DNA of 40,996 bases from Thermoplasmata archaeon (GCA_030040625.1 JASHTI010000159.1:1-40996); one strand, 5' to 3'. Shown: positions 6,921 to 36,217, numbered from the stretch's first letter. Program-made: numbers and translations. The notes: generated by a model from the letters alone, not told the origin.

Positions 6921-7514
6921 ATGGGCGATCCGAAGTTCCTGCGCCGTCGCTACGACACGCCGAAGCATCCGTGGGAGGGCCCCCGGATGGAGGAGGAGCG
7001 CAAGCTCCTCGAGCGCTACGGCCTGAAGAACAAGCGCGAGCTCTGGAAGGCCCAGTCGGTCCTCCGGGGGTTCCGTCGCCAGGCCCGCGAGCTGCAGGCT
7101 CGCCTCCGGGCCGGGGTGCCGCAGGCCAAGCGCGAGACGAACCAGTTGCTGGGCCGCCTGTCCCGCCTCGGGATCCTGAGCGCCGGCACGCCGACGCTCG
7201 ACGACGTGCTCGCCCTTTCCACGGAGGATATCCTGCGCCGGCGCCTGGAGTGGATCGTCTTCTCCAAGGGCCTCGCCCCCACCCCGTGGAGCGCCCGCCA
7301 GTGGATCGTGCACGGCCACCTTTCGGTCGGCGAGCACCGCGTCCGCCGGCCGGGGACCCTGCTCCCGTCGGCCGAGGAGGCGCGGCTCGGCTACACCGTC
7401 TCGAGCCCGCTCGCGGACGAGGGGCACGCGGTGCGCACGGCGCTCCGTGAGCGCCTGGAACGCCGCGGTGGCGCGCCTCCGCCGCCCCCGCCGGCGGAGG
7501 GGGTGCCGTCGTGA
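6921..7514 (+). CDS. rps4: 30S ribosomal protein uS4 (197 aa)
   Basis: MGDPKF.RR.YDTP.HPW...[14 protein letters not shown] and an S4 RNA-binding domain. It sits in the conserved S13-S4-S11 order. Confidence 0.95.
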
Positions 7515-7894
7515 CGAAGGTCGGGATCGCGCACATCTTCGCGAGCTACAACAACATTCACATCACCGTCACCGACATCACCGGCGCGGAGACGCTCGCC
7601 AAGGCGACCGGCGGGATGGTCGTCAAGGCGGCCCGGGACGAGTCGAGCCCGTACGCCGCGATGAAGGCGGCGGACCAGATCGCCGCGGTCCTGAAGGAGA
7701 AGGGCTACGAGACGCTCCACGTGCGGGTCCGCGCGCCCGGCGGCAACCGCTCGCGCTCTCCCGGTCCCGGCGCCCAGGCGGCGATCCGGGCGCTGGCGCG
7801 CGCCGGCGTCAAGATCCAGCGCATCGAGGACGTCACCCCGGTGCCGCACGACGGAACGAAGCCCAAGGGCGGCCGCCGCGGCCGCCGGATGTAG
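7511..7894 (+). CDS. rps11: 30S ribosomal protein uS11 (127 aa, GTGA overlap with rps4)
   Basis: [21 protein letters not shown]...[27 protein letters not shown] is canonical S11. Confidence 0.95.
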
Positions 7895-7900
7895 GGAGCG

Positions 7901-8746
7901 ATGCCGGTCACCGTCGAGCAGCTGACGCCCCGGTCGACGACCCTCGAGCTCGAGGGGGTCACGGCCGCCCAGGCGAACGCGATCCGCCGGACGCTGGTCG
8001 CGGACGTCCCCAAGCTGGCGATCGAGGACGTGGAGTTCCACCTGGGGCCGATCCGCGACGAGACGAGCGGCAAGGACTACGACTCGTCGACGAGCATGTT
8101 CGACGAGGGCGTGGCGCTCCGGCTCGGTCTCCTCCCGATCCCGACCGATCTCTCGCAGTTTCGCCGGAAGTCCGAGTGCACCTGCAACGGCGCCGGCTGC
8201 GCGAACTGCCAGGTGATGTACTCGATCGACCGCAAGGGCCCCTGCACGGTCTACGCGAAGGACGTCGTCCCGCTCGGCGACGCGTCGCTCGCGATCCTCG
8301 AGCCGGAGGTCCCGATCGTCCGGCTCGGCGCCCGCCAGGCGCTGCTCGCCTACGCGACGGCCGTGATCGGGACCGGTCGCGAGCACGCCAAGTGGCAGGT
8401 CGCCCACGCCGTCGGCATCTACCCCCGACCGCACGTGAAGATCGCGCGGAAGGAGGGGTGCACGGACGCCTGCCTGAAGCGGACCGCCGCCTCCTGCCCG
8501 GTCGACATCCTCCGCTTCGGGGACGGCAAGCTCACCGTCACGGACGAGGTCAAGTGCATCGATTGCCACGCCTGCGAGAAGAGCTGCGAGCACGGCTCGA
8601 TCCACATCGAGCCGGACGAGGAGCGATTCTTCCTGCGCTTCGACACGGACGGCTCGCTGAGCGCCCGGGAGGCGCTGCGGTTCGCGCTCAAGGACCTGCG
8701 CCGCCGCCTCGAGGAGCTCCGCGAGGCGGTGCAGGCGATCCCGTAG
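7901..8746 (+). CDS. rpoD: DNA-directed RNA polymerase subunit D / Rpo3 with ferredoxin-like Cys-rich insertion (281 aa)
   Basis: Position after S11, an RpoD dimerisation-domain pattern, and an internal CxxxC...CP plus CIDCHACEKSC Fe-S-type motif as seen in some archaeal Rpo3 proteins. Confidence 0.9.
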   Translation: MPVTVEQLTPRSTTLELEGVTAAQANAIRRTLVADVPKLAIEDVEFHLGPIRDETSGKDYDSSTSMFDEGVALRLGLLPIPTDLSQFRRKSECTCNGAGCANCQVMYSIDRKGPCTVYAKDVVPLGDASLAILEPEVPIVRLGARQALLAYATAVIGTGREHAKWQVAHAVGIYPRPHVKIARKEGCTDACLKRTAASCPVDILRFGDGKLTVTDEVKCIDCHACEKSCEHGSIHIEPDEERFFLRFDTDGSLSAREALRFALKDLRRRLEELREAVQAIP

Positions 8747-14095: not shown

Positions 14096-15076
14096 ATGGA
14101 TGGTCCCGACAACGACCGCGTCGAGGGCTCTCCTCGACCTCGGCGGCACCGTTTCGCGCGCGGGAAGGCACCGAACCCCCTGCTCCCGGTACTGGTCGGT
14201 GCGGCGGTCGCGGGGCTGGTGGTGTTCGGGGCCGGTCCGGGCGGCTTCCTGCTGCCCCGGGCGACGAGCTGCACCCTCGGGGTCCTCGTCGGGACCTACG
14301 AGATCTACACCGTCCTGACCCCGATGAACAAGCCCACGGGCGTCGACGTCGGCACCGTAGCCGCGACCGGCGGACTCAACTTCACGTTCACCTCGGGGTC
14401 GCTGACCGTCGGCGGTCTGAGAATCGGACCCGGCACGGCCGGGTGGGGGGATTATAGCCCCCATGGCGGCATCTCGGCGATGGGCGCCGAGGAGAACTGG
14501 TCCGTCTACGCGGTCCGGAACACCACTCGGCTCGGCGGGATCGCCGCGCCCTGCACGCAGGCGTACGTCGCCGAGATCACGCCCGGTTCCATTCCCACAT
14601 GCTCGGGGTTTCTGACCCTCCCGCTGGCGGACAACGACTCCGATACGATGGAACCGCACGTCTGGGATGGGACCGGGAACGACACAGGAGCCGGCAATGG
14701 AACCTACTGGTGGGGCTACGGATGCTCCGCGGCCACTCCCGGCGCCCGCTACTGGTTCGACACTTCGTTCCACACCGGTTCGGCCGCTTCGGCGCCCGCC
14801 GTGACCTGGAACCTCTGCGGGCATCCGGGTCGCTATCCGCTCGTCGTCTCGGGCCCGGTCCGCGTCCCGATCGTGGTCACGGTTCCCTCTTCGGGAGGTC
14901 CCCTCTCCGCTCACGGCTTCATGAGCTGGGATGCGGGCCCGGGATCGTCGACGGCGAACTACTCGTTGCCCGGGGGGTGGATCTGGCAGTTGGCGCCGGT
15001 CGGGCCGGTGTCGACCCCCTGGAACCTGCCGGGTCCGCTATCCGCTACGGTGGCGTTCGAAAGGGCGAGCTGCTAG
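14096..15076 (+). CDS. hypothetical membrane-anchored / secreted Cys- and Gly-rich protein (about 326 aa)
   Basis: An N-terminal basic stretch plus one TM helix (LLPVLVGAAVAGLVVFGAG) is followed by a Thr/Gly/Trp-rich ectodomain with several N-x-S/T sequons and paired cysteines. No family recognised. The start could be either 14024 or 14096. Confidence 0.55.
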   Translation: MDGPDNDRVEGSPRPRRHRFARGKAPNPLLPVLVGAAVAGLVVFGAGPGGFLLPRATSCTLGVLVGTYEIYTVLTPMNKPTGVDVGTVAATGGLNFTFTSGSLTVGGLRIGPGTAGWGDYSPHGGISAMGAEENWSVYAVRNTTRLGGIAAPCTQAYVAEITPGSIPTCSGFLTLPLADNDSDTMEPHVWDGTGNDTGAGNGTYWWGYGCSAATPGARYWFDTSFHTGSAASAPAVTWNLCGHPGRYPLVVSGPVRVPIVVTVPSSGGPLSAHGFMSWDAGPGSSTANYSLPGGWIWQLAPVGPVSTPWNLPGPLSATVAFERASC

Positions 15077-15448: not shown

Positions 15449-15456
15449 CTATATAC
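15449..15456 (+). promoter_or_regulatory. TATA-box-like element upstream of the RHH-ftsZ-like operon
   Basis: CTATATAC sits in the only AT-rich island of a 430-nt intergenic region, about 55 nt upstream of the ATG at 15511. Confidence 0.5.
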
Positions 15457-16918: not shown

Positions 16919-17541
16919 CGCCCGCCGCGGCCGTCCTTCTCGCCGGCCTCCCGAAGGTCGAGCTCGCGCTGCACCGCATCGATCACCTGACTGGTCCGCA
17001 GGGAGCGGGGGCCCACCGAGAGCCGGGGGACCCCGCTTTCCCCGAGCAGGCGGGCCTCCTCCCCTTCCGGCTCGAACGGGTCGGAGAGGAACCCGCGGAA
17101 CTCCGAGGGGGAGATCGGGTGCCCTCCGATCGGGGAGCCCACCTCGGTCAGCCAGACGGCTCCCGGTTCGCGGAGGAATCCGGCGACGATCGCGAGAGGG
17201 TCGGCCGGGCCGACCTTGAGCCCCGGGGACGCCTCGAAGTCCGAGGGGTAGCGCGCCGCCCCGACCAGCGCGTTCTTCAGCAGGGCCGCCGTCGAACGCT
17301 CGTCCGGATACAGGTGGCGCAGACGGGCCCCGCTGAGCTCGATCCGACGCGCGTTCGGAGGCGGCTCGGCCGCGAAGACGACCGTCATCTCGGTGTCGCG
17401 GCGGAGGTCGTTCGACAGGGTGAAGGCCGTCGAGACGCTCCGGGCGATCTCGTCCATCCGGCCCGCCCCGCCGGCGAGGTCGTTGAGGGTGAACGCCCCG
17501 CTGGGGGGGACCCGGTGGGCGACCAGCAGGAACCGGCGCAC
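16915..17541 (-). CDS. trmY: tRNA (pseudouridine54-N1)-methyltransferase TrmY (SPOUT, DUF358; 208 aa, GTG start)
   Basis: MRRFLLVAH......F.LNDLAG.AGRMDEIARSV..AF..S...RRD....VVF...PP matches the TrmY family pattern. Its stop codon shares the CTAG tetranucleotide with the ftsZ-like stop. Confidence 0.75.
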   Translation of the reverse strand: MRRFLLVAHRVPPSGAFTLNDLAGGAGRMDEIARSVSTAFTLSNDLRRDTEMTVVFAAEPPPNARRIELSGARLRHLYPDERSTAALLKNALVGAARYPSDFEASPGLKVGPADPLAIVAGFLREPGAVWLTEVGSPIGGHPISPSEFRGFLSDPFEPEGEEARLLGESGVPRLSVGPRSLRTSQVIDAVQRELDLREAGEKDGRGGR

Positions 17542-17584
17542 GGCCGGCCGAGCCGGGCGGGGGGTTAACCCCGCCGGGGGGCGC

Positions 17585-18244
17585 CTACGCCCCGGTCGGG
17601 CCCCGGCGCGGCCTCGAACCGGCCGCCGGCGTAATCGTGGGCCCCTGGCGCCGCTCCAGCCAGATCTCGTCCGCGAGCTCGTGGTAGACGGCGTGGGCGG
17701 CGAGACCCGTGCCGTGCTCGCCGTGCGGGAGGCGGAACGCTCCGGACCGCTGCGCGTTGGGCGAGAAGATGACCTCCTGCTCGCCGGCGGCGGCCATCGC
17801 GTCGGACTCCTGCCGGGCCAGCTCGAAGATGCGGTCCTTGCGGAACATCCAGTAGTGGATCCGCCACTCGCGACCGTCGTAGAGGGTCGTCTCGTCCCGC
17901 TCGGTCTCGAGGATGCCCGTGTCCTCGAGCATGTAGAACGTGTCGCGGTCGTCCGGCTCCAGGACGTTGTCGATGATCCGCTCGTTGAAGCCGAAGAAGT
18001 TCAGCACGTGGGCGGCGATCGACCGGGCGTCCTCCGGACGCATCCCGTCATGGCCGACCGACCGACGGATCGCCTTCGCGAGCGAATCGAAGTCGACCGG
18101 ACCGCTCGGCAGCGCGAGCGCCTCGTCCTCCGGGATGCCCGCGCGGGTCGTTCGAATGTCGGCCTCCGATCGCAGCGGAAGCGGATTCCTCAGCTTGTAA
18201 CCCGGGCCTTCCGGCCGGGTCGGGCGCCCCCCCGTGCCCACCAT
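17585..18244 (-). CDS. conserved-looking hypothetical protein (about 219 aa)
   Basis: Globular core (VLNFFGFNERIIDNVLEPDDRDTFYMLEDTGILE...LYDGREWRIHYW) with good coding character. I prefer the ATG at 18244 because TATATATA lies 25-33 nt upstream; the track starts at GTG 18268, inside that TATA region. Confidence 0.6.
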   Translation of the reverse strand: MVGTGGRPTRPEGPGYKLRNPLPLRSEADIRTTRAGIPEDEALALPSGPVDFDSLAKAIRRSVGHDGMRPEDARSIAAHVLNFFGFNERIIDNVLEPDDRDTFYMLEDTGILETERDETTLYDGREWRIHYWMFRKDRIFELARQESDAMAAAGEQEVIFSPNAQRSGAFRLPHGEHGTGLAAHAVYHELADEIWLERRQGPTITPAAGSRPRRGPTGA

Positions 18245-18268
18245 GCGGCCAAGTATCTCGATGGTCAC

Positions 18269-18277
18269 TATATATAC
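18269..18277 (-). promoter_or_regulatory. TATA box (TATATATAG on + strand) for a leaderless transcript of the 17585-18244 gene
   Basis: The strongest AT run in the window, spaced 25-33 nt from the ATG at 18244. Confidence 0.55.
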
Positions 18278-18460
18278 ATTCGGCGACGGCCTGGATTCTG
18301 GAGCCCCTCCGGTCCCCCGGAACCCCCGTTTCTCTGACGGAGAACCACGGTCCTCGGACCCCCTCCTCCGCGGCGGGCCCGGCGGCGGTGTCGCCGGCGC
18401 CCGCCAGAACGGGGTTCAAATACCACTGAGCCTGTTCGGACGTTCCCCGAGGGACCCCGG

Positions 18461-19039
18461 ATGACCGAGAAGAAGCGGCTTCCCCGACTGTTTTACGTCT
18501 TCCTCGGGATCGCGACGCTCACCCTCCTCACCGGGTTCACGATCGGGGCGCTGACGCTCGGCGGGTTCGGCTCCAGCCCCCGGCAGGCGAGCGCGCAGGT
18601 CGTCATCCCCGGCCCACCCGCCGGCCTTACCTTCCCGCTGGCCGAAGCGGTCTTCGTCACCGCCTCCAGCAGCCCCGCCGTCGGCGCCTGCGCGGCGTCG
18701 AACTTGGGGACCCAGCTCGCGCCGACGCCGCTCGTGAACGGCAAGAACACGACGATCTGCCTGGCGACGGTCACCGATGGCTTCGCCCTCGGCGACACCG
18801 CCTACATCCTGGACCTGGAGTGGAACAAGACCGCGGCGATCTCCACGACCTTCGAGGTCCAGGTGTTCATCTCCGCGAGCCCGTCGAGCAACGATGTCCT
18901 GGTGACGTCGTTCGTCAACACGACCGCGACGATCACGACCGAGGAGATCGCTACCTTCGCGATCGACCTGACCGCCGCCGACGACAGCGGGGTCACCGGT
19001 TTCAACGTCCTGGTCACTCAGCTCGCCACGCCGCCGTAG
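18461..19039 (+). CDS. hypothetical membrane-anchored surface protein (192 aa)
   Basis: N-terminal signal-anchor (LFYVFLGIATLTLLTGFTIGALTLGG) followed by a Thr/Ala/Val-rich beta-type domain with N-x-T sequons (NTT, NKT, NTT). No family recognised. Confidence 0.6.
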   Translation: MTEKKRLPRLFYVFLGIATLTLLTGFTIGALTLGGFGSSPRQASAQVVIPGPPAGLTFPLAEAVFVTASSSPAVGACAASNLGTQLAPTPLVNGKNTTICLATVTDGFALGDTAYILDLEWNKTAAISTTFEVQVFISASPSSNDVLVTSFVNTTATITTEEIATFAIDLTAADDSGVTGFNVLVTQLATPP

Positions 19040-19051
19040 GGCGGCCCCGAA

Positions 19052-19630
19052 CTAGGCGGCGGCCCGCCGCGGGCGCGCGACCTTCTGGAGCGCGGCGACC
19101 GCCGGCCGCCACTCCTCGTCCTCGATATGGAACTCGAGGTCGGCGAGCCCCTCGAGCCCCCGGGGGAACGGCACCAGCGAACGGGTCAGGTAGACGTGCG
19201 CGAACGGCCCGCCGGTCGGGCCGCCCCAGCTCCGGCCCTGGTCGACGACCCCCCGGAACTCGTAGTACTCCGGAGCCGGGACCAGCCAGGCGACGGAGTC
19301 GTCCGTTCCCTTCACGCGACCCCCCCGTGAGTAGACCTGCAATCCGAGGTGCTGGGCGACGGTGCTGGGAAGCGTGAACAGCAGCCGATCCCCGGGCCGC
19401 GCCGTGGCGAGCAGCCGCTCCCGGACCGTCTCGACCGCGAGCGCCTCGCGCGCCGGGTACGTCGCGACGACCCGGGCGATCCCGGAGCCGCGCGCGAGGA
19501 AGGAGATCGAGCGGGCCGCGGTCGCCCCCTTCTCGGCCCGGGGCTCGTAGCAGATCAGCTGGCCGACCTCGGTCGGCAGCTGCATGGTGAGCCAGGTCGG
19601 GTGGCTCGCCCGGACGACGACGTACTCCAT
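19052..19630 (-). CDS. hypothetical protein (192 aa)
   Basis: ORF with good coding character. A TATA-like GTATAAGA (+ strand 19653-19660) lies 23-30 nt upstream of the ATG. No confident family; the segment LLFTLPSTVAQHLGL weakly resembles an AbrB/SpoVT-like strand-turn. Confidence 0.5.
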   Translation of the reverse strand: MEYVVVRASHPTWLTMQLPTEVGQLICYEPRAEKGATAARSISFLARGSGIARVVATYPAREALAVETVRERLLATARPGDRLLFTLPSTVAQHLGLQVYSRGGRVKGTDDSVAWLVPAPEYYEFRGVVDQGRSWGGPTGGPFAHVYLTRSLVPFPRGLEGLADLEFHIEDEEWRPAVAALQKVARPRRAAA

Positions 19631-19734
19631 CCGACCGCCGAGCCCGGGAGCCGTATAAGAAAGCTAACGAACGCTCGGCCCCGGGTGGGAGGTGTCGCCC
19701 GGCCGCGCACGGAACCGATCGCGGACGGGATCGG

Positions 19735-19965
19735 CTAGCGCCGGCCGCCGGATCCGAGGAGCAGCCCCCCGACCCACAGGCTGACGATGCCGATCGCCGC
19801 GACCCCGAGCGCCCGCTCCAGCGTCCCGGAGGCCGACGGGATCGTCCCGCCGATCACGAACAGACCGACGAGCGTGAGGAGTACGCCGAGCGCAATCTTC
19901 GCGCCCCGCGAGAGGCGCGGCGGCCGTCGTGGCGGCGCGCTCGCCGGCGGGGACCCCTCCGTCAC
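19735..19965 (-). CDS. small 2-TM membrane protein (76 aa)
   Basis: A Pro/Arg-rich N terminus followed by two hydrophobic helices. It lies directly downstream of the antiporter gene on the same strand. Confidence 0.45.
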   Translation of the reverse strand: MTEGSPPASAPPRRPPRLSRGAKIALGVLLTLVGLFVIGGTIPSASGTLERALGVAAIGIVSLWVGGLLLGSGGRR

Positions 19966-20016
19966 CGCATCCCCCCGGGACCGGGGGCAGATAGGCGCTG
20001 CGTGCGCCCCGGTTCG

Positions 20017-21333
20017 CTAGGGCTCCGCCGGGAGCGGGGGGACCTCGGGGGGCATCGAGGAGCCCAGCCACGGCCGCAGGCGCTCGTCGCTCGGCGAGCG
20101 ACCTCGCTCGCCGACCCCGCGGAGGAACGGTTTGGCCCCGATCGGGGCGAGGAGCGTCGTCACGAGACCGACCCCGGCGACGATCGTGAAGAGCGTTGCG
20201 TTGAAGATCCCGTCCGAGAGGAGCAGGACGGCCATCGCCAGCTCGACCGCGCCGCGGCTCGCTACGAGGAACCCCGCGCCCGCGGCGTCGCCCGCGGGCC
20301 AGCCGAGGGAGCGGGAGACGGCGCCCCCGATGAGGACCTTCGAGCCGAAGGCGAAAACGCAGAGACCGACGAACGCCGCGAACGCGGGGGCGCTCAGCAC
20401 GAGCAGCCGCAGGTCCATGCCGAGGCCGACCAGGGCGAAGAAGAGCGGGATGAAGAACCCCCAGGTGACGGTGTCGAAGACCCGCGAGATCTGGCGGTGC
20501 TCGCGGGCGCCGACGCTCTCGGGAGTGACGAGCAGGCCGGCGTAGAAGGCACCGACCAGGAACGTGAGGCCGATCGCCTGGGAGTAGAGCGCCGCGGCGA
20601 GCCCCGCGATCATGAGGAGGGCGAAGCCGGCCTCCCGGGAGTGCCACCCCTCCCGGACCCGGCGGACCCATCGGTCCCAGATGCGGAGCTGGCGGAGCGC
20701 ACGGAGCGCCTGGTGGACGGCGAGGATCGATGAGAGGAACACCGCGACGGTCACGGCGCCGATCGCCGCATCGGCCCCGGGGGCCGTTCCGCCACCGGCG
20801 ACGACCCGGAGCAGGACCGAGAACGTCGTCACGGCCGCGAGTTCGTTGATGAGCGCCCCGTTGAGCAGGTAGGTGCCGAACCGGCTCTGCAGGAGGCCGA
20901 GCTCCCGCAGCATCACCCCGAGGACGGGCAACGCCGTGATCGAGATCGTCAGCGCGACGAACAGCGTCGTCGACCAGGCCAGGGCCGGGTAGAGCAGGCG
21001 CACGACGGCCGCCCCGCTCAGGAACGGCACGACGAAGATCGCCACCCCCAGGAGGCCCGCCGAGAGCCCCGTCGCGCCGATCTGCTCCGGGGTCACCGCG
21101 AGACCGGCGGTCATCAGCACGAAGAAGGTCGCGAGGATCTCGAGGCCGTTCAGCTCGGAGGAGATGCTCCCGAGACCGAGGATCGGCCCCAGGAACGTCG
21201 GGCCGAGGATCACCCCGACCGCGAGCTGCCCCACGAGGGCGGCCTGCCCGAGCCGGCTCACCAGCTCCCCGGCGACGACCGCGCAGGCGACCAGGAGGAA
21301 CAGTCCGACGATGAACAGCGTGGTCGGATCCAC
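20017..21333 (-). CDS. cation:proton antiporter (CPA2 / Kef-NapA type; about 438 aa)
   Basis: A multi-TM protein with the typical N terminus (LFIVGLFLLVACAVVAGELVSRLGQAALVGQLAVGVILGP). I trimmed the track start (21441) to the GTG at 21333, which is preceded by GGAGAGGGG. Confidence 0.8.
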   Translation of the reverse strand: MDPTTLFIVGLFLLVACAVVAGELVSRLGQAALVGQLAVGVILGPTFLGPILGLGSISSELNGLEILATFFVLMTAGLAVTPEQIGATGLSAGLLGVAIFVVPFLSGAAVVRLLYPALAWSTTLFVALTISITALPVLGVMLRELGLLQSRFGTYLLNGALINELAAVTTFSVLLRVVAGGGTAPGADAAIGAVTVAVFLSSILAVHQALRALRQLRIWDRWVRRVREGWHSREAGFALLMIAGLAAALYSQAIGLTFLVGAFYAGLLVTPESVGAREHRQISRVFDTVTWGFFIPLFFALVGLGMDLRLLVLSAPAFAAFVGLCVFAFGSKVLIGGAVSRSLGWPAGDAAGAGFLVASRGAVELAMAVLLLSDGIFNATLFTIVAGVGLVTTLLAPIGAKPFLRGVGERGRSPSDERLRPWLGSSMPPEVPPLPAEP

Positions 21334-21506: not shown

Positions 21507-22049
21507 GTGCCCGTCCCCCGTCGTCGCGGAAGCTCTTCGCCGACCGTCGACGAGGAGGAGGCGCTCCGGTCCCGTCGCCGTCGGGCCACCGAGGAGGCGC
21601 TCGAGGTCCGACTCCGATCCGAGCGCCCGGTCGTGGAGCTCGAGGTCCGCAACCCCGCCCACGGAACGAGCTACCGGGTCTTCCTGCCGGAGTACCCGGA
21701 GCGGGCCTCGGCGCTCTGCACGTGCACGGATTTCGCCCGACGCGGGCTCGGTACCTGCAAGCACCTGGAGGCGGCCGTGGCCGCGTCCTCCGACCTCGCG
21801 GCCCTCCCCCGCGCTGCCGGCGGGGAACCGCCCGCGGTCCCGGTCGGGGAGCTCTGGGCCGAGCTCGAGCGGCTCCGCGCGGGACTCCTGCGGCACCCGC
21901 CCCGGGAGATCCGCGAGCTCGAGGCGGCCGGTCGGCCGATGTGGAGCCGCCCGAGCGGGGAGTTGAAGAAGGAAGGGGTCGAAGAAGGGGTTGGCCGCGG
22001 CCGGAGGGGCCCCGACCGCGCTACGTCGACATCCCCGGCGCGCCCTTGA
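21507..22049 (+). CDS. SWIM zinc-finger domain protein (180 aa, GTG start)
   Basis: CxCx(n)CxH signature read directly: ALCTCTDFARRGLGTCKHLEAAV. The remainder is Arg/Glu-rich and helical. The 3' end overlaps the convergent radical SAM gene by 29 nt. Confidence 0.6.
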   Translation: MPVPRRRGSSSPTVDEEEALRSRRRRATEEALEVRLRSERPVVELEVRNPAHGTSYRVFLPEYPERASALCTCTDFARRGLGTCKHLEAAVAASSDLAALPRAAGGEPPAVPVGELWAELERLRAGLLRHPPREIRELEAAGRPMWSRPSGELKKEGVEEGVGRGRRGPDRATSTSPARP

Positions 22050-23730
22050 GCGCCCGGATCTTGTAGTACTCAGGGTCGACGATGACCTCGCCGTTGACGC
22101 CCATCGTCTCGATCGTCTTCAGCTGCACGCCGCTCTGGGACTTGGCGCGCTGCCAGTCCGGGATCGGGATCGAGAACTTCTTCTCGACCTCCGTCCGGTA
22201 GATCGGGCCCGAGTTGTAGCTGCAGAACGGGATGACGCGCCCGTCCGGGACGGCGTAGTGGATGTCGCAGCGCATCAGGCGCTGGATATCGTAGTCGTAG
22301 GCGTCCTGGAAGTGCATGTTGCCGATGTAGAGCGTCCGCCAGGTGAACTTCGCGACGGCCTCCTTGTTCCCCTCGGTGAAGATCGAGGCGATCACGCGGA
22401 CGCAGTTCTTCTCGTTCAGCCCCTCCGGCGCCCGCGAGAAGTCGAAGTACTTCGCGACGTCGTGCAGGAGCTTCGCCCCGGCGACCGCCGTCCGGACCCG
22501 CGCGAAGCGCGCGTCCCGGTACTTCTCGATCATCGACTCGACGTTCTCGAAGAAGCCGTCGACGTCCATGAACCGCGGCAGCGGGGTGATCTTCTGGCCG
22601 TCCTGGCTGATGAAGGCGAACGTCGCGCAGCCGCAGCCGGGGTGCGTCGTGAGCGTCATCTTCTCCTCCCCGTGGATGATCGACGTCAGCTCGGAGATCG
22701 GCGCCACCGACGGGACCGGGAAGAAGTCCGACCGCTCGAACGGTCCGTCCGTGCAGAGGATGCGGACGAGGTCCGACTGGGTGAACCGCATCTGGAAGCG
22801 GTCCTTGTCGGGGATCCGCGCGGTCAGGGCGACCGGCTGGAAGTTGACCCCGCGGACGACGTCGATGTTGTCGATCGCGAAGCGGACCGTCGGCCAGATC
22901 TCCTTCTCGTTGAACCCGCCGACCAGCGTCGGGACGAGGACGACCGACAGCGGCTTGTCCGGCTTGCCCGCCGCGAGCTCGCTCGCCGGCGCGTGGGTCT
23001 CCCGGGCCGCCTGGATCGCCTTCTGCTTGACCTTCAGCAGGGGGACGCCGCGGACCTTGCGGTAGATCTCGTCGTCCAGCCCATCGAACTGCAGGTAGAG
23101 GGTGTGCAGCCCCGCGTCCCGGCACGCCTGGGCGAAGCCGGGCTCGTTGGCGACGCGGATGCCGTTCGTCGCGACCTGGATCTGCTTGAACCCGAGGTCC
23201 CGGGACATGCTGACCGCGTCCAGGAACAGCGGCGAGAGCGTCGGCTCCCCGCCCGAGAACTGGACGGCGACCGTGCCGACCGGCTTCTGCTCGCGGAGCG
23301 TCTTCAGCATGAAGTGGATCTGCTCGCGCGTCGGCTCGAAGACGTAGCCGGCCGCGTTCGCGTTCGCGAAGCAGACCGGGCACTTCAGGTTGCAGCGGTT
23401 GGTCAGATCGACCAGCGCCAGCCCCGTGTGGGACTTGTGGTGGCTGCACATCCCGCAGGTCGTCGGGCAGCCGCGGAACTTGTCGTAGTACGGGTTCTCG
23501 TAGCCGACCCCGTCGTGCGCGTAGACCTCCATCCGGAGGTAGAAGTCGACGTCGTTGGAGATGATGTCCCAGAAGTAGCCGTGGGCACGGCACGTCTTCT
23601 CCATGATGACGCGGCCCTCCTTCTCTCGAACGATCGCCGGGATGACCTTGATGCACTCCGGGCAGACGGAGGCGGTCTTGCGGGGCAGTCCCCGCGGGGC
23701 CTGGAACTCCTTCATCACACGCGCCGGCAT
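22021..23730 (-). CDS. tes: radical SAM protein, tetraether lipid synthase (Tes / GDGT-MAS, MJ0619-like) candidate (about 569 aa)
   Basis: N-terminal CPEC...C..H knuckle, auxiliary CPTTCGMCSHH, radical SAM LTNRCNLKCPVCFANA plus VQFSGGEPTL, and a large C-terminal domain with further Cys (HPGCGCATF, FCSYN). I prefer the ATG at 23730 because GGAG lies about 10 nt upstream. Confidence 0.65.
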   Translation of the reverse strand: MPARVMKEFQAPRGLPRKTASVCPECIKVIPAIVREKEGRVIMEKTCRAHGYFWDIISNDVDFYLRMEVYAHDGVGYENPYYDKFRGCPTTCGMCSHHKSHTGLALVDLTNRCNLKCPVCFANANAAGYVFEPTREQIHFMLKTLREQKPVGTVAVQFSGGEPTLSPLFLDAVSMSRDLGFKQIQVATNGIRVANEPGFAQACRDAGLHTLYLQFDGLDDEIYRKVRGVPLLKVKQKAIQAARETHAPASELAAGKPDKPLSVVLVPTLVGGFNEKEIWPTVRFAIDNIDVVRGVNFQPVALTARIPDKDRFQMRFTQSDLVRILCTDGPFERSDFFPVPSVAPISELTSIIHGEEKMTLTTHPGCGCATFAFISQDGQKITPLPRFMDVDGFFENVESMIEKYRDARFARVRTAVAGAKLLHDVAKYFDFSRAPEGLNEKNCVRVIASIFTEGNKEAVAKFTWRTLYIGNMHFQDAYDYDIQRLMRCDIHYAVPDGRVIPFCSYNSGPIYRTEVEKKFSIPIPDWQRAKSQSGVQLKTIETMGVNGEVIVDPEYYKIRALKGAPGMST

Positions 23731-23955
23731 TGCTGGTTCTCCGTTGCTCCCCGCCCCCCGAGGGGGCCGTGGGGTTAGGTGGCCCACCTACCCCGACCTA
23801 CATAACCCATCTGTCGTTCAGACAGCGACAGAACCCCCCTCCCCGTGACGAGCAATCGCACGGTTCGCCGAGCGACAACCGCCCCCGGGACGAGGCCGCG
23901 GGGGGGGACGGAGCCGCCTAGGTTATCGGCCCGTACGGCTCGGGAACGATCGTTC

Positions 23956-24516
23956 ATGGCCCCGCCGGCACGACGCAGAGCGCGCCCGCCCAAGGCAGCG
24001 TCCCGACGCGGTCGGCCCCGGCCGAAGCCAAGAGCCCGCCGGAAGGGGGGATTCGTCGGTCGGGACCCCTCACCTGTACTAGACAAGTACCCGCCCCGGC
24101 CCGGCGCGGCCGCTCGGCTCACCATCCCGACCGCGCCCCGGCCGGCCGCGGTCGCGGCCCTCCCGCCCCCCAGTGCACCGACCCCGCCGACGGCGGGTGC
24201 GTCCGGCGAGCCACCGGCCGGCCTGATCCGACTGGAGACCCCGTTCGACGTCGACGAGTTCTCGCGGATGCTCGGCGAGACCTCCCTGCGGATGACGGTC
24301 CCCCGGGACGCCCTGCCGGAGGTGCTGCGACGGGTGACCGAGTTCATGGGTTTCGGCATCTACGTCTATGCGGTCACGGTCCGACCCGCCCCCACGGAGC
24401 TCCTGAAGGGGTTCGTCGTCGATCTGCAGAGGGTAGAGTTCGACGCCGACTCCAACACCTGGAAGCCGTTCGTCGAGCGGGGCGCGCTTCCCGGGCCCGC
24501 GTCGCACGGGCCCTGA
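23956..24516 (+). CDS. hypothetical protein: Arg/Pro-rich disordered N-terminal half plus an ~90-aa globular C-terminal domain
   Basis: The C-terminal part (LIRLETPFDVDEFSRMLGETSLRMTVPRDALPEVLRRVTEFMGFGIYVYAVTVRPAP...) looks like a real fold, while the overlapping reverse-frame ORFs are R/G junk. The start codon is uncertain. Confidence 0.45.
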   Translation: MAPPARRRARPPKAASRRGRPRPKPRARRKGGFVGRDPSPVLDKYPPRPGAAARLTIPTAPRPAAVAALPPPSAPTPPTAGASGEPPAGLIRLETPFDVDEFSRMLGETSLRMTVPRDALPEVLRRVTEFMGFGIYVYAVTVRPAPTELLKGFVVDLQRVEFDADSNTWKPFVERGALPGPASHGP

Positions 24517-24598: not shown

Positions 24599-26611
24599 CT
24601 AGCGCAGACGCGTGCCGCAGGCCGTGCAGAACGCCACCCGTTCGACTCGGTTGACCTGCCCACACCGCGGGCAGGCGATCGCTCCGGGGGGAAGGCGCGG
24701 GGGCCCCCGGGGGGTCGAAACCGCGGCGAGGGGGGGCTCTCCGCGCGGGCCCGCCGCGGCCGGTGGGTCCCCTCCGGCGCGCGCGGTGGCGGGGGTGGGC
24801 GGTACCCCCGGGACGGGTGGGGTCGCGGCGCTCCACAGGCCCGGCAGCGCCGCTCCGGAGGGGGCCCCGGCGCCCGGCGTCCCTCCGGCGCGAGGAGGCA
24901 TGCCCAGCCCCGCCGCGACGGCGGGCGGGATGACCCAGGCGGGCGCGTAGGGGCTGGCGAGGATCCCGCGGACCTGCGGAATGGTCGCGCTGAATCCGCG
25001 CATGATCGCCTCGCTGCCGGGCAGCACGTAGTGGAAGTTGAACCAGCCTCGTCGGGGAGGGACGACGCCGGGTTGGAGCTGCGACCAGGGGACCCGGAGC
25101 TCCCCCACGCGTCGATCGAGGATCACGCCGGCGGGAACGACGCCGATTGAACGCGGGAGCTGACCGAGCGACGTCCAGGCGACGACCGCGATGAACACGC
25201 CAAAGACGAGGGCGAGCACGATCGCGCTGGCGACGGCGGCCTGGGGGCTGCCGTCGGCGAACGAGAGGGCCAGGACCGGAACGAACACGACAAAGACCAC
25301 CACGAGGATCCCGAGCTGCTGGATGACCCGGGACCGTAATGCGGGCCCGCTCGGGAACCAGCCCGGGATCTCTCCCGGCCGGAGCTGAAACCCTTCGCCG
25401 AGCCGACGCTCCTGGTTGCGGCGGTGGCGGTTCCCGACCAGACCGGCGACCAGGGTGGGGACGAGAATGATCGTTCCGAGGATCAGCAGCAGCCCGAACC
25501 CGGTCAGGTGCGAGTACGTCGGGTTGATCAGGAGCGTCCAGGTCCCGTCCGCGTAGACCAGCGTCGACGTGAGGACCCCGGCGCTGACCGCGCCAGAGAA
25601 GTAGACGACGTAGTGGTCGACCGGATCGTCGACCAGGACAGCCCCGAACGACGCCTCGGGGCCACCCGGGGCGTTCAGCTGGGTCCAGCCGGTGGGCCCG
25701 AACGTCCACTCGCTGCGGAGGTAGCTGGCGTTGTAGCCATTGACCAGCAGTAGGTAGCCATCGCCGCTGTCGTAGGTCATCGGGGCCAGACGCCGCGGAC
25801 TCGGGGCCGGCCGGTCGGTCGCCGTCAGGTTCGTCCAGTTCCCGGCGTGGTAGGACCAGGTGTCCCCCATGGACGCGGCCGAACTCCCGCCGCCGCCGAA
25901 GAGGACCACCGAGGTCGTCGCCGGGTCGTAGGCCATCGAGGCCCCGAAGCGAGGGCTCGGCGTCGGGGAGCTCACGTTGCCGACCTTCGACCAACGCCCG
26001 GAGGCGAACCCCCACTCGTCGTTCAGGAGAGTGCTGCCGGTCCCCGTCCCACCGAACAGGAAGACGTAGCCGTCGGTCGGATCGTACGTCATCATGGTAC
26101 GACCGCGGCCGGGCGGCGGGGTCGGCTGATTGCCGGTCAGGTTCGTCCAGCTGTCATGCGCGTAGCCCCAGGTCTGGTTGGAGACGAGCGTGCACGCGAG
26201 GTTCAGGCACCCTCCGAAGAGCAGGACGTAGCCGGCGACCGGGTCGTAGGCCAGGCCCTCCCCCCAGCGCGCGGAGGGGGCGGGCCCGACCGCCGACGTG
26301 AGATTCGTCCAGTTGCTGTGGACGAACGACCAGGTCCACGGCACGACCTTCCCGGCCGGGTCGAGGCCCCCGAACATGAGCGCGTAGCCGTCCGCGGTGT
26401 CGAAGGCGGCGGCCGCGCCCACCGTCGGGGGAGGAGAGACTCCGTTGGAGTGCCGGACGACGGACGTCGCCTCCGCCCGGCCGATCGCCCCATGGATTGG
26501 GAGGGGACTGATCAGGAGCGCCGCGATCCCGAGGGCGGCGAGGGCCGCCGTGGCCGCCTTGCGCGCGCGGCTCCGGCCTCGAGCCGCGGCGTCCGCCGGA
26601 GGCCGGTTCAT
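24599..26611 (-). CDS. multidomain membrane protein: signal peptide, six-bladed Kelch beta-propeller, TM, TM-hairpin plus PH-like domain, Pro-rich linker, C-terminal zinc ribbon (about 670 aa)
   Basis: I trimmed the 853-aa track ORF to the ATG at 26611 (MNRPPADAA...ALAALGIAALLISP signal). That ATG overlaps the upstream gene's stop as ATGA. There are six repeats of the (Y.LLFGG ... W..LT) type, and the protein ends in CPRCG-x12-CTACG. Confidence 0.75.
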   Translation of the reverse strand: MNRPPADAAARGRSRARKAATAALAALGIAALLISPLPIHGAIGRAEATSVVRHSNGVSPPPTVGAAAAFDTADGYALMFGGLDPAGKVVPWTWSFVHSNWTNLTSAVGPAPSARWGEGLAYDPVAGYVLLFGGCLNLACTLVSNQTWGYAHDSWTNLTGNQPTPPPGRGRTMMTYDPTDGYVFLFGGTGTGSTLLNDEWGFASGRWSKVGNVSSPTPSPRFGASMAYDPATTSVVLFGGGGSSAASMGDTWSYHAGNWTNLTATDRPAPSPRRLAPMTYDSGDGYLLLVNGYNASYLRSEWTFGPTGWTQLNAPGGPEASFGAVLVDDPVDHYVVYFSGAVSAGVLTSTLVYADGTWTLLINPTYSHLTGFGLLLILGTIILVPTLVAGLVGNRHRRNQERRLGEGFQLRPGEIPGWFPSGPALRSRVIQQLGILVVVFVVFVPVLALSFADGSPQAAVASAIVLALVFGVFIAVVAWTSLGQLPRSIGVVPAGVILDRRVGELRVPWSQLQPGVVPPRRGWFNFHYVLPGSEAIMRGFSATIPQVRGILASPYAPAWVIPPAVAAGLGMPPRAGGTPGAGAPSGAALPGLWSAATPPVPGVPPTPATARAGGDPPAAAGPRGEPPLAAVSTPRGPPRLPPGAIACPRCGQVNRVERVAFCTACGTRLR

Positions 26612-27441
26612 CGCCCGGTGATGCCGCGTTCGCCCAGCGATCCGTGGGGGACGCCGGGGCCGGAAGAGGAGGGTGCGGAGGGGGCACCGGGAACGGACGA
26701 CCCGGCCGGCCGGTCGGGGGCGAGCCCCTCCCCGACCAGGATCGGAGCGCCACAGCTCGGGCATCGGGGGTGCCTCCGGTCGAGCGAGGTCGGGTCGACC
26801 AGGGTCCCGCAGTACGCGCATGGGATCCGGTCCCCCAGCGTGCGGGCCACCAGCTCCTCCCGGCTCGCCTCGATCGTCGCCAGCGCGGACTCGACCGCGA
26901 ACGCCTGCTGGACGAAGGCGTAGACCTGGGCGGACTCCGGGAGCGCGTTCCAGTAGATCGTCTTCGCGTACTTGCGGCCCCCCAGCACGCCGGTCGGCGA
27001 GTCCAGCGGGGTCGCATCGAACTTGATCCCTCCCGAAACGCCCGGCTCGTTGCGCAGGTTCTGGATCTGCCCGAAGAGCGCGTCCAGCAGTTCGGGCTGT
27101 CGGACCCCGCTCACCCGGAGGACCCGCCGGTGCGTCAGCGCGTAGGCGGTCGACCTCCACTTCAGTACGTAGTAGATCATCAGGATCAGGAACAGGCCCA
27201 GGCAGAACCAGCCGAACGGATTCGCGGGGAGACCGGCCGAAACGTACGCGAACAGCAGGACGAGCAGGGCCAGGACAATGAGGCGTCCCCAGTACAGGCC
27301 GAAGAGGCTCGGTCGGGTCTCGAAAAGGACCCGCTCGCCCGGGCCGAGCAGGTCGCGCGGAAACGCCCCCGGCTGGTTCGTGCGCGGGACGACCGTGAGG
27401 AGGTCCGCCTCCGTTCGAGGTCCCGACCAGGTCTCCTGCAT
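26608..27441 (-). CDS. bacterial-type PH domain (bPH_2 / YdbS-YdbT-like) membrane protein with C-terminal zinc ribbon (277 aa)
   Basis: GERVLFETRPSL plus two TM helices and AYALTHRRVLRVSG...IQNL is the classic bPH layout. The C terminus carries CAYCG-x16-CPSCG and a Pro/Ser-rich tail. Confidence 0.7.
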   Translation of the reverse strand: MQETWSGPRTEADLLTVVPRTNQPGAFPRDLLGPGERVLFETRPSLFGLYWGRLIVLALLVLLFAYVSAGLPANPFGWFCLGLFLILMIYYVLKWRSTAYALTHRRVLRVSGVRQPELLDALFGQIQNLRNEPGVSGGIKFDATPLDSPTGVLGGRKYAKTIYWNALPESAQVYAFVQQAFAVESALATIEASREELVARTLGDRIPCAYCGTLVDPTSLDRRHPRCPSCGAPILVGEGLAPDRPAGSSVPGAPSAPSSSGPGVPHGSLGERGITGR

Positions 27442-27466
27442 CGCCGGCGCCCGCAGGTCGCCGCCG

Positions 27467-27474
27467 AATATAAT
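27467..27474 (-). promoter_or_regulatory. TATA box (ATTATATT on - strand) for a leaderless transcript of the bPH/Kelch gene pair
   Basis: An AT island 26-33 nt upstream of the ATG at 27441, within the 88-nt gap after the ABC permease gene. Confidence 0.5.
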
Positions 27475-27488
27475 CCCGGTAAACCGGG
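27475..27488 (-). terminator. short GC hairpin (CCCGG-TTTA-CCGGG on - strand) followed by a U-rich run; possible terminator of the PadR-ABC operon
   Basis: A perfect 5-bp stem with a 4-nt loop, read directly. It lies 42 nt downstream of the permease stop and is immediately followed by AUUAUAUU. Confidence 0.3.
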
Positions 27489-30203: not shown

Positions 30204-31226
30204 CTAGGGCCGGCTCGGGATCGCCTTCCGCCCGTATCGCCAGCCGTCGTCGATCTCGTACAGTCGCCGCAATCGGCTGTCCACGCGGGTCCCGATCGCC
30301 ACCTCGGAGGGATCGGCGTCGGCGACGCTGAGCGTGACGGTGACGTCCGGCGCGAGCTCGGCGAGCACGACCCCATACGCGCCCGAGACGGCGACCTGGG
30401 CGTCGAACTCGGTCGGCTGGCCCCCCGGGCCGATCCAGGTCGCTGCGACGACCTTCGCGCCGTCGAGCGGGAGCGGTTCGGGCTCCAGAGGGCCGCCCTG
30501 ACGGCAGTGGCGGCAGCGGCCCCGAGGAGGGAACGTCAGTCGTCCGCACGCGCGGCAACGGTCCGCGATGAAACGCCAGCGGGCGGGCCTCGCCTCCTCG
30601 TCCCGGGGGATCGGGACGAACGCTCCCTGCGACACCGTCGGGCCGCCGCGCGGCGTGGGCCCGGGCTTCGCCCTTGCCCGGCCGGTGCCCGGCGATCGGC
30701 GCCAGTCGCCCGGCCAGCCGGCGGCCGCGCCGGCCTCGTGGAGGGCGGTCCATGCCTGCGCGAACTCGGCGCCGGCCTCGACGGTGCCGGTCGCGCCTCC
30801 GCGCAATCGCTCGAGCGGGAGGGCGTCCGTGGAGTCGTCCACCCGCAGGGCGATCGCACCCTCGCCCGGTGCGCTCAGGCTCGTCGGTCCCCCTGCCCCC
30901 TCGTGTCTCACGACGACGAGCCAGTCCGGCTCGCGGGATCGCTCGATCTCGGCGAGCCACCCGCTCCAGGAGGCCTCCGCCCGGGGAAGGATCGTGATCG
31001 GTCGGCCCACGACGTCCCGGAGCCGGGCGGCCGAGTCAGGGTCGAGCCCACCGCCGAGGTGCAGACGGAGGGGAGGGTCGCCGGTGACTTCCCGGGGGAC
31101 GAGCCGCTCCAGCGCGGTCGCTGCCATGGTGAACGGGTCCTCGTCCCACCCGGACCTTCGGCGGGATGCGTCGGCGTACGCCGGCAGATAGAGCGCCCCT
31201 CGTGTGATCCCGCGCACGTCGCTCAC
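30204..31226 (-). CDS. DUF35 (zinc-ribbon + OB-fold, thiolase/HMG-CoA-synthase-associated) protein with an ~190-aa N-terminal extension (about 340 aa)
   Basis: The C-terminal part is a DUF35 rubredoxin-like knuckle plus OB fold (RCRACGRLTFPPRGRCRHC ... GVVLAEL ... VDSRLRRLY). The GTG start at 31226 overlaps the thiolase stop as GTGA. The track ORF extended to 31424. Confidence 0.7.
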   Translation of the reverse strand: MSDVRGITRGALYLPAYADASRRRSGWDEDPFTMAATALERLVPREVTGDPPLRLHLGGGLDPDSAARLRDVVGRPITILPRAEASWSGWLAEIERSREPDWLVVVRHEGAGGPTSLSAPGEGAIALRVDDSTDALPLERLRGGATGTVEAGAEFAQAWTALHEAGAAAGWPGDWRRSPGTGRARAKPGPTPRGGPTVSQGAFVPIPRDEEARPARWRFIADRCRACGRLTFPPRGRCRHCRQGGPLEPEPLPLDGAKVVAATWIGPGGQPTEFDAQVAVSGAYGVVLAELAPDVTVTLSVADADPSEVAIGTRVDSRLRRLYEIDDGWRYGRKAIPSRP

Positions 31227-32410
31227 CCGGCGGTGTACACCGCGACGGCGGCCGTCGCCCCGGCCCCGCCCACGTTGTGCGTGACGGCGGATCGGGCGGA
31301 GCGCACTTGCCGGGGCCCGGCGGCGCCACGCAGCTGCAGGAAGACCTCGTAGGCCTGGGAGACCCCGCTGGCGCCGATCGGGTGGCCCTTGGACTTCAGT
31401 CCGCCGTCCGGGTTCACCGGGCACGCCCCGGATCGCTCGGTCGCCCCGGAGAGCGTCAGCTTCGCGGCCTCGCCGCGGCCGCAGAGCCCGAGGTCCTCGA
31501 GGGCGAGCAGCTCGGCGATCGTGAAGCAGTCATGGACCTCCGCCAGCCCGACCTCGGTCGGCGCGACCCCGGCCTCCTGGAAGGCGACGGCCGCCGCCCG
31601 GCGGCTCGCCGCGAAGCCCCGGCGATCGGGCCGCTCCTGAAGCGCCAGGTAATCGCTCGCCGCGCCGACGCCGTCGATGTAGACGGGCGTGTCGGTGAAG
31701 CTCCGCGCATGCTCCGGCGAGGCGATCAGGAGGGCGGCGGCGCCGTCGCTCACCGGGCAGCAGTCGTAGAGGCCGAGCGGGTCGGCGACGCGGGGGCTCG
31801 CGCGCGCCTGCTCGCGCGTGATCGGCTTGCGGAAGTGCGCGTTCGGGTTGAGGGCGCCGTTCGCGTGGTTCTTGACCGCGACCGCGGCGAGCGCCTCGGC
31901 GGCCTCGGGGTGGGCCGCGAGGTACTCGGACGCGATCAGCCCGTAGACCCCCGCGAAGGTGAGGCCCGCCTGACGCTCCCATTCGGTGTCGCCCGACACC
32001 CCGAGCCAGTAGCGGCGCCGGGCCGCGGAGACATCGGTCATCTTCTCCAGCCCGGCGACCGCGACCAGGTCGACGGCGCCGGAAGCGACGGCGCGGACCG
32101 CCTCCTGCAAGGCGAAGCCGCCGGAAGCGCAGGCGTTCTCCACTCGGAGCGTCGCGAGGCCGGGGACCCCGAGCTCCTCGGCGAGCAGGGCGGAGGAGTT
32201 GCCGAGCTGCCAGCCCCCGAAGCCGAGGGTCGCCAGGTATCCGCGGCCGATGCGGGCCCGGTCGAGCCCGTGGTCGACGCTCGCGGCCGCGCCGTCCAGC
32301 GCGGTCCGCAGAAGGGCCCGGGGTCCCTCCGGCAGGACGCCGAAGCGACTGTGACCCGCCCCTACGATCGCCGCGCGATGCCCCACGACCTCTGCCCCAC
32401 GAACCGTCAT
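31223..32410 (-). CDS. thiolase (archaeal acetyl-CoA acetyltransferase type; 395 aa)
   Basis: AIVGAGHSRFG, active-site VENACASGGFAL, and C-terminal THNVGG plus GHPIGASG motifs. Confidence 0.9.
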   Translation of the reverse strand: MTVRGAEVVGHRAAIVGAGHSRFGVLPEGPRALLRTALDGAAASVDHGLDRARIGRGYLATLGFGGWQLGNSSALLAEELGVPGLATLRVENACASGGFALQEAVRAVASGAVDLVAVAGLEKMTDVSAARRRYWLGVSGDTEWERQAGLTFAGVYGLIASEYLAAHPEAAEALAAVAVKNHANGALNPNAHFRKPITREQARASPRVADPLGLYDCCPVSDGAAALLIASPEHARSFTDTPVYIDGVGAASDYLALQERPDRRGFAASRRAAAVAFQEAGVAPTEVGLAEVHDCFTIAELLALEDLGLCGRGEAAKLTLSGATERSGACPVNPDGGLKSKGHPIGASGVSQAYEVFLQLRGAAGPRQVRSARSAVTHNVGGAGATAAVAVYTAG

Positions 32411-32452
32411 ATCGGTCGAGACGCCTCCCCGATTTAACCCCCGGGAGCCGAG

Positions 32453-36145: not shown

Positions 36146-36217
36146 CAATCATATTAGTGATGGGACGATTGCTCCCACGGTGATGTCGGGGCCGGGCCCG
36201 ACCGCCGGGCGCGCCGG

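Follow-up and report, generated by a model that had tools for sequence, protein, structure and literature searches.

The 40,996-bp contig JASHTI010000159.1 of a Thermoplasmata archaeon (GCA_030040625.1; 72.4% G+C), referred to here over its full length as the window, carries on its minus strand two overlapping genes, gene 1 (26608..27441, 277 amino acids (aa)) and gene 2 (24599..26611, 670 aa). Both encode membrane proteins with a transmembrane (TM) hairpin, a PH-like domain and a zinc ribbon, and the gene 2 protein additionally contains a Kelch propeller. On balance, we consider it probable that these proteins assemble into a single integral-membrane complex, as its two subunits, and that this complex is confined to a group of uncultured Thermoplasmata. 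The best reading of the pair is a heteromeric surface-display or recognition complex on a scaffold of bacterial-type PH (bPH) domains like that of the YdbS/YdbT proteins, for which confidence is good as to the complex and low as to the specific role.

One line of evidence came from the obligate linkage of the two genes. Exact-protein look-ups, GTDB genomes and JGI metagenomes supplied the loci, which were scanned with the profiles of both families. A gene 2-type partner adjoined the gene 1 homologue in about 20 of about 20 distinct loci with enough sequence, and approximately 20 pairs of gene 1 and gene 2 homologues were found to lie on one contig each. Between 25 and 47 clusters of gene 1 homologues were retrieved, without exception from metagenome-assembled genomes of Thermoplasmata, and gene 2 has more than 30 full-length orthologues; every homologue with a named source was labelled Thermoplasmata archaeon. 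Thus, the pair occurs together well outside this genome, and gene 2, being full length in dozens of genomes, is neither a fusion artefact nor a pseudogene. As far as genomics can show, genes 1 and 2 form one system.

The arrangement of the pair varied amongst these loci in ways that are informative about its architecture. The genes are separate, with a Kelch-bearing gene 2, in 16 loci (in reversed order in L031), and in two lineages (P0029/P0031/P0032 and L035) they are fused into a single protein of ~1000 aa, with gene 1 first, then a linker and then gene 2. Since P0029, one of the fused proteins, is present on 15 assembled contigs, it is no assembly artefact. The fusion order is also topologically coherent, since the cytoplasmic C-terminus of gene 1 precedes a first TM helix (TM1) of gene 2 that runs from in to out. 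The Pro/Ser tail of gene 1 (residues 238-277, 26611..26730), predicted to be disordered with predicted local distance difference test (pLDDT) scores below 50, is found only in the closest relatives P0001-P0003 and matches the linker of the fused P0029, P0031 and P0032. The tail thus corresponds to the fusion linker, and a recent event at exactly this junction, either fusion or fission, would separate the window clade from the fused clade.

In two further loci (L010:1552-2436 and L041:2483-3379), a Kelch-less gene 2 of ~270-300 aa directly follows the gene 1 homologue and keeps the pre-hairpin strand, the hairpin, the PH-like domain, the Pro-rich linker and the ribbon. The existence of these pairs identifies a bPH/zinc-ribbon heteropair as the core, with the Kelch propeller as an accessory ectodomain, and shows that the minimal system, as judged from gene content, consists of two small bPH/zinc-ribbon membrane proteins. 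Additionally, in a sister clade (L002, L003/L014, L015 and L017) a third gene begins 4-5 nucleotides (nt) after gene 2 (L003:12908-15091 and L002:12915-15089), and the start of one is present in L016. Its first ~254 residues constitute a complete gene 1-like bPH and zinc-ribbon unit (hhalign 3e-36), and the rest comprises a polytopic membrane region followed by a sequon-rich C-terminal portion of ~120 aa that has no Pfam match. The recurring element, as predicted from these genes, is the bPH/zinc-ribbon unit, to which ectodomains are attached in different ways.

Gene boundaries and a promoter-like element were consistent with coordinated expression of the pair. The two reading frames are joined by an ATGA stop/start overlap at 26608..26611 (-), read directly from the sequence, and on an identical contig (L026) the genes as called independently show both the 4-nt overlap and the 670-aa product. 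Together with the conservation of the homologues, this confirmed that two real genes are present, as the preliminary description made from the sequence alone had proposed. The TATA-like box that it assigned to the module was also borne out: ATTATATT lies at 27467..27474 (-), spanning -33 to -26 relative to the start codon of gene 1 and leaving a spacer of 25 nt before the ATG at 27441. AT-only runs of at least 6 nt number eight in the 41-kb window and those of 8 nt number two, ATTATATT among them. A comparable element (TTAT, TTAAAT or ATTATATT) was found at about -30 of the gene 1 homologues in L001, L002, L003, L005, L007, L011, L013 and L015, with the identical octamer at -33 in L005. In leaderless archaeal transcripts the TATA box typically lies ~25-30 nt before the start codon, and a promoter of its own with a leaderless transcript is well supported by sequence for this gene pair. 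The other AT-only runs of at least 6 nt lie at 2649-2654, 2723-2728, 14451-14456, 15450-15455, 18269-18276, 32432-32437 and 36151-36156, several of them ~22-40 nt upstream of candidate starts (for example 2620 (-), 32410 (-) and 36115 (-)), which suggests that these too may be TATA boxes and that the genes of the window are mostly leaderless.

The gene 1 protein begins with a strongly conserved cytoplasmic motif (residues 8-45, 27307..27420; TEADLL..P.TN.PG.FPR.LL.PGERVLFETRP) with E11, L14, P19, N22, R29, L32, E36 and E41-P44 invariant in the family alignment. An AlphaFold2 (AF2) model of mean pLDDT 79 places a short strand at residues 38-42 (DSSP, pLDDT ~90) ahead of the TM hairpin (residues 51-96, 27154..27291), for which the hydropathy scan and the modelled helices at 51-70 and 75-96 agree. 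The PH-like domain follows directly (residues 97-203, 26833..27153), with six strands predicted within 99-165 and then a long helix at 170-203. In Foldseek searches of this model, all of the top 50 PDB matches were of the PH superfold (PH, PTB, GRAM or GLUE domains) and included the myotubularin GRAM-PH, GRK2 PH and TFIIH p62 PH domains and the bacterial PH structures 3b77, 3hsa and 3dcx; E-values were modest (6e-3 to 0.14), with probabilities mostly of 0.8-1.0. In profile searches, bPH_2 (PF03703) matched 17 of the 26 gene 1 relatives, all below threshold, and the best of these reached 21.8 bits against a cut-off of 22 (E 2.2e-4, profile positions 1-39 of 78). These matches are located exactly after the second TM helix (TM2), and two of the relatives are named 'PH domain-containing protein' by NCBI. 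A TM hairpin directly before a PH-fold domain, as modelled here, is the layout of bPH_2/YdbS-type proteins. The four-cysteine (C4) zinc ribbon of gene 1 (residues 206-235, 26737..26826; CAYC-x15-CPSC) has all four cysteines invariant in the 26 relatives, and Zn_ribbon_3 (PF13248) matched 18 of the 26, with a best E-value of 1.4e-4. Its spacing, C208xxC211-x15-C227xxC230, corrects the x16 given in the preliminary description, which had correctly recognized both the ribbon and the Pro/Ser tail.

The gene 2 protein opens with an Arg-rich N-terminus and a hydrophobic segment at residues 19-37, assigned by hydropathy scan as a signal-anchor TM1 running from in to out (residues 1-40, 26492..26611). 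This segment had been described as a signal peptide; its hydrophobic N-terminal character holds, but it need not be cleaved, and in the fused homologues it is an internal TM helix. The six-bladed Kelch beta-propeller that follows (residues 41-365, 25517..26491) was confirmed by profiles scoring above their gathering cut-offs, with 74.4 bits against 50 for PF24981 (E 1.2e-20), 70.3 against 50 for PF24681 (E 1.9e-19), 41.4 against 21.6 for PF13418 and 27.8 against 22 for PF13415, and by six DGY..LFGG / W..L repeats that can be read in the translation. The chain would return to the cytoplasm through TM2 (residues 366-394, 25430..25516; hydropathy 370-392 and AF2), which is followed by an RRxxERR stop-transfer patch. 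A juxtamembrane segment predicted to be cytoplasmic (residues 395-428, 25328..25429) then carries the conserved motif LGEGF.L.PGE.V.W.P, in which P412 is invariant and W418 nearly so (alignment positions 52 and 58), and a short pre-hairpin strand at 417-420 (residues 57-60 of the model).

The C-terminal module of gene 2 was modelled by AF2 over residues 361-670 from 30 aligned orthologues, with a mean pLDDT of 82. Its TM hairpin (residues 429-482, 25166..25327) is supported by hydropathy at ~430-451 and 459-480 and by modelled helices at 424-452 and 456-483. The PH-like domain (residues 483-572, 24896..25165; GVIL.RR.GELRVPW.QLQP ... Q.R.IL.SP.AP.W) has six predicted strands within 486-543 and helices at 544-551 and 563-569, with pLDDT values of 88-98 for the six strands and a helix. 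The best Foldseek matches of the module were the PH-like folds of FERM F3, FACT and Rtt106, which were not significant (E ≥ 0.13), and none of the 30 C-modules matched a bPH family, including PF03703, at E ≤ 1; the PH-like assignment of this module is probable on the basis of the model. A Pro/Ala/Gly linker (residues 573-642, 24686..24895), disordered in the model (pLDDT ~46-57) and variable in length and sequence amongst the orthologues, leads to the terminal C4 zinc ribbon (residues 643-670, 24602..24685; CPRC-x11-CTAC). All four cysteines are invariant in the 30 sequences, and Zn_ribbon_3 matched 30 of 30 C-modules, with a best E-value of 4e-7. The CPRCG...CTACG ribbon reported earlier is therefore present, with a spacing of x10 rather than x12. 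Two conserved CxxC knuckles combined with a profile match point to a C4 zinc ribbon in both families. Domain searches of gene 1 and gene 2 found no enzymatic or DNA-binding domain, in agreement with the preliminary description.

The models thus point to a plan common to both proteins, consisting of a short strand, a TM hairpin, a PH-like domain in which a helix accompanies six strands, and finally a C4 zinc ribbon; the shared architecture that had been proposed is supported by the two AF2 models, the Foldseek results and the ribbon profiles. The relation between the two units was less evident in their sequences. BLASTP of gene 1 against gene 2 aligned the CPxCG knuckle alone, and hhalign aligned 27 columns around the pre-hairpin motif (PGERVLFETRP with PGE.V.W.P) at a probability of 80%. 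With an enlarged alignment of the gene 2 module, an in-register match of 126 columns spanning the strand, hairpin and domain was obtained (P=0.003, probability 10%). No paralogues were found within the window.

A profile search with the gene 2 hairpin and PH region against 1.84 billion representatives retrieved 336 relatives. Amongst these are standalone proteins of 150-190 aa (P0168-P0283; more than 100 clusters at 50% identity) that consist of a TM hairpin and a PH-like domain and belong to no Pfam family. They share homology with the C-module of gene 2 (E 1e-16 to 1e-8 over ~140 positions, with the motif EQARAIL..P.CP.W), lack the Kelch region and the zinc ribbon, and have no adjoining gene 1 homologue in the two loci inspected. 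A few match bPH_6 or bPH_10 weakly, the best at 3.8e-4 (bPH_6). The loci of such proteins at L022:1269-1844 and L024:6001-7062 contain many small hypothetical genes together with SIR2-like, Fic and PycTM genes, and L022 apparently holds several paralogues of the standalone protein.

The orientation of the gene 2 protein in the membrane was assessed through the distribution of its N-X-S/T sequons. All eight, at N100, N103, N145, N157, N212, N258, N261 and N294, fall within the Kelch region, whereas the rest of the protein, which is just as long, has none; gene 1 has none either. The same bias was observed in 34 of 34 gene 2 orthologues, with 3-9 sequons in the Kelch region versus 0-2 elsewhere. 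Because of this restriction and of the positively charged patches, the Kelch region is assigned to the outside of the cell, and the bPH units and ribbons of the two proteins to the inside; the propeller is very probably extracellular and, given its sequons, may be N-glycosylated. Pairwise identity amongst orthologues was ~0.5 in each of the Kelch, PH and ribbon regions and 0.2-0.3 in the TM segments and linkers, and the ribbon was the most conserved part of gene 2 (0.55). That these three regions are evenly conserved favors a ligand that is itself conserved and speaks against a fast-diversifying adhesin engaged in an arms race.

Considering these observations together, we propose a complex in which each subunit would contribute one bPH unit, with all soluble parts of the unit facing the cytoplasm, and in which the extra TM pair of gene 2 would present the six-bladed, probably N-glycosylated Kelch propeller as its extracellular loop. 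The TATA box of the pair would drive a leaderless mRNA covering both genes, and the ATGA overlap would couple the translation of genes 1 and 2, favoring their 1:1 production. The two bPH domains may then associate 1:1 on the cytoplasmic side of the membrane and might build higher-order rings, an assembly that is suggested by the precedent of soluble bacterial PH domains, which form oligomeric rings via an open beta edge (PMC2817789). Membrane-anchored bPH families are likewise predicted to be intracellular (PMC2817789). In such an arrangement, the bPH domains would anchor and cluster the Kelch propeller, which may bind a conserved extracellular ligand (a glycan or a protein), and the two tethered zinc ribbons may contact a cytoplasmic partner.

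The preliminary description held that no characterised system has this paired architecture, which overstated the case, as the YdbS/YdbT pair of Bacillus subtilis and the DdE/DdF pair of Enterococcus faecalis (COG3402/COG3428, bPH_2 PF03703) are comparable. In YdbS/YdbT-like pairs, a 2-TM protein with a single bPH domain is encoded beside a 6-TM protein with three bPH domains, and a leaderless bacteriocin is exported only if DdE and DdF are both available (PMC8657885). As with those pairs, the present genes are adjacent and co-oriented, and encode a small one-hairpin bPH protein and a larger partner with a further hairpin (PMC8657885). The sub-threshold bPH_2 matches of gene 1 relatives (21-21.8 bits) lie directly after TM2, and the fused form of the present pair has six TM helices, as does YdbT. 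Where YdbT has three units, gene 2 has a single PH-like one, and it gives no PF03703 signal, and so falls outside the definition of YdbT (COG3428). At the level of profile matches, gene 1 is a borderline member of the family, and for gene 2 no membership could be detected. The present pair further differs in the 325-aa Kelch propeller placed in one hairpin loop, in the C4 zinc ribbon that ends each unit on a Pro-rich tether, and in being archaeal and found in Thermoplasmata only; no link to a bacteriocin locus or to a sigma-W-type regulon was found for it. Nothing in YdbS/YdbT (DdE/DdF) as described in PMC8657885 corresponds to the Kelch insertion, to the zinc ribbons or to an archaeal host.

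Two other groups of proteins share parts of the architecture. Soluble bacterial PH domains (PHb, PF08000; 3hsa, 3dcx, 3b77) have the PH fold and are amongst the Foldseek matches of gene 1, at 8-17% identity in the structural alignments, and are without the TM hairpin, zinc ribbon and ectodomain. Membrane-anchored Kelch proteins of Thermoplasmata, annotated in metagenome-assembled genomes as 'kelch repeat-containing protein', have the same propeller type as gene 2; at least 1699 homologues were retrieved, many of them from Thermoplasmata or Lutacidiplasmatales and often with PKD domains, and most align to the Kelch half of gene 2 alone (36-59% coverage). A literature search on Thermoplasmata and Kelch returned nothing relevant.

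Several observations weigh against the proposed complex and its role. The gene 1 protein of the window has no bPH match in Pfam at E ≤ 1, so that the 'classic bPH layout' once attributed to it stands as to the TM hairpin followed by a PH-like fold and not as to a recognizable family; the PH assignment of gene 2 leans on the model and on weak statistics (Foldseek E ≥ 0.13); and neither window protein reaches the gathering threshold of a zinc-ribbon Pfam family (12-21 bits versus 27). Common descent of the two bPH units is no more than plausible. The Kelch region has no sequence relatives in the PDB at E ≤ 1e-3 and thereby offers no clue to a ligand, and no third gene, cytoplasmic partner or ligand conserved across all loci was identified.

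The neighborhood of the pair raised the question of whether it serves a transporter. A PadR gene, a DrrA-like ABC ATPase and an ABC-2 permease lie directly upstream of the pair, 88 nt away on the same strand, and it was suggested earlier that the pair is linked to this PadR-regulated exporter. In that case it could act as an accessory of the exporter, comparable to YdbS/YdbT or DdE/DdF, that helps the cell to export or to tolerate small antimicrobial peptides or compounds, and the requirement of bPH pairs for leaderless bacteriocin export is a precedent for such a function (PMC8657885). In L032, a strong ATPase homologue (5e-54 to 5e-55) with two ABC-2 permeases is convergent to the pair, and in L003/L014 an ABC ATPase precedes it. 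However, homologues of the upstream PadR and ABC-2 permease were found near the pair on contigs of the same species only; a 69%-identical relative (L029) has the hydrogenase maturation genes HycI/HypA upstream instead, and most other loci have unrelated neighbors. ABC ATPase homologues occur near the pair in 5 of ~20 loci, a frequency that was judged indistinguishable from chance for so common a class. The PadR/ABC-2 linkage was rejected on these grounds, as it is not conserved across loci. The pair also has its own conserved TATA-like box, YdbS/YdbT-like couples are generally unlinked to ABC transporter genes (PMC8657885), and no bacteriocin-like small open reading frame (ORF) was noted, although no systematic search for such ORFs was made. 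An exporter accessory would additionally leave the Kelch ectodomain and the zinc ribbons unexplained, and we regard this explanation as quite unlikely.

Another alternative is one-step transmembrane signalling, in which a ligand bound by the Kelch propeller alters the bPH heteropair and frees or exposes the ribbons, which then bind a component of transcription or translation in the way of a membrane-tethered regulator. The receptor-like order of ectodomain, TM helix, cytoplasmic module, long flexible tether and small C4 ribbon is consistent with it, as are the standing of the ribbon as the best-conserved part of gene 2 and a weak likeness to the RpoP, TFIIB and L37e ribbon families. That likeness is, however, generic and far below threshold, the domain searches revealed no output domain in either protein, and no regulator gene is conserved beside the pair across the loci. 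Moreover, the Kelch-less pairs imply that sensing through Kelch cannot be the core function. Signalling of this kind thus appears unlikely, if less remote than a role in export. Another concern is that long spurious ORFs are common at 72% G+C and that the region has many overlapping ORFs, so that genes 1 and 2 might be annotation artefacts or mere neighbors that are not coupled. Both proteins yield confident models and have homologues conserved at 30-75% identity, in no examined locus are the genes apart, and in two lineages they have fused, which leaves this explanation barely credible.

The heteromeric complex on a bPH scaffold therefore remains our preferred reading, and the variants of the family permit a broader, rather doubtful proposal. 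The pair may represent a previously unrecognised type of archaeal transmembrane adaptor, a cytoplasmic and membrane 'socket' that would accept differing surface modules and couple them to an intracellular partner through ring-forming PH domains and tethered ribbons. The surface modules seen so far are the Kelch propeller, the polytopic domain with a small extracellular beta domain of the third-gene variant, and none at all in the Kelch-less pairs. If this proposal were true, it would give prokaryotic PH domains a defined role in communication between the envelope and the cytoplasm.

Membrane-anchored PH domains are widespread in bacteria and archaea, and their mode of action is almost wholly obscure. 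To our knowledge, the functional data on them are only genetic, namely the antimicrobial tolerance associated with YdbST and the leaderless bacteriocin export dependent on DdE/DdF. The Thermoplasmata family can be regarded as a natural experiment in this respect, as it presents an obligate pair in split and fused forms, with and without an ectodomain, and with ribbon-tagged units; the series gives testable predictions on heteromerisation and topology and an entry to the function of prokaryotic PH domains. Uncultured Thermoplasmata from soil and peat encode many Kelch proteins, and the family also provides a way into the study of their cell surface. The finding itself is genuine, and what it describes is conserved and uncharacterised; as yet it reveals no new mechanism and overturns no expectation.

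A conflict-related role had also been put forward for the module. Gene 1, gene 2, the third-gene variant and a standalone relative had no match in PADLOC-DB 2.0 at E ≤ 0.01, and scans of IMG/VR with both family profiles detected no relatives. A few kb upstream of the pair in L002, a cluster that resembles a defence island (2859-7914) carries a ThsB-type TIR, SLATT, GmrSD and a D12 methyltransferase, and it was not seen in the other loci. Given the lack of PADLOC matches and IMG/VR relatives and the non-recurrence of these defence genes, a role in defence or conflict was rejected.

The remaining observations concern the surroundings of the pair. A 223-aa ORF at 23845-24516 (+), convergent with gene 2, occupies the 0.8-kb gap before the next gene; its N-terminal half is Arg/Pro-rich, its C-terminal ~90 aa are protein-like, it has no Pfam match, and overlapping ORFs on the minus strand make the gene call uncertain. 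The gene beyond it, at 22021-23787 (-), encodes a 588-aa radical SAM protein with an N-terminal zinc ribbon of the HMPTM type (PF04055 1.4e-18, PF23545 5.6e-16), an architecture that we take to be that of the archaeal glycerol dialkyl glycerol tetraether (GDGT) lipid synthase family, formerly HMPT methyltransferase. On the other side of the pair, at 30204-32410 (-), a thiolase gene lies beside a zf-ChsH2 zinc-ribbon ORF, as is usual for the genes of the archaeal acetoacetyl-CoA thiolase/HMG-CoA synthase complex. The same two genes are found at 17393-20115 of the fused-gene locus L005, also a few kb from the pair, and may be a remnant of local synteny.

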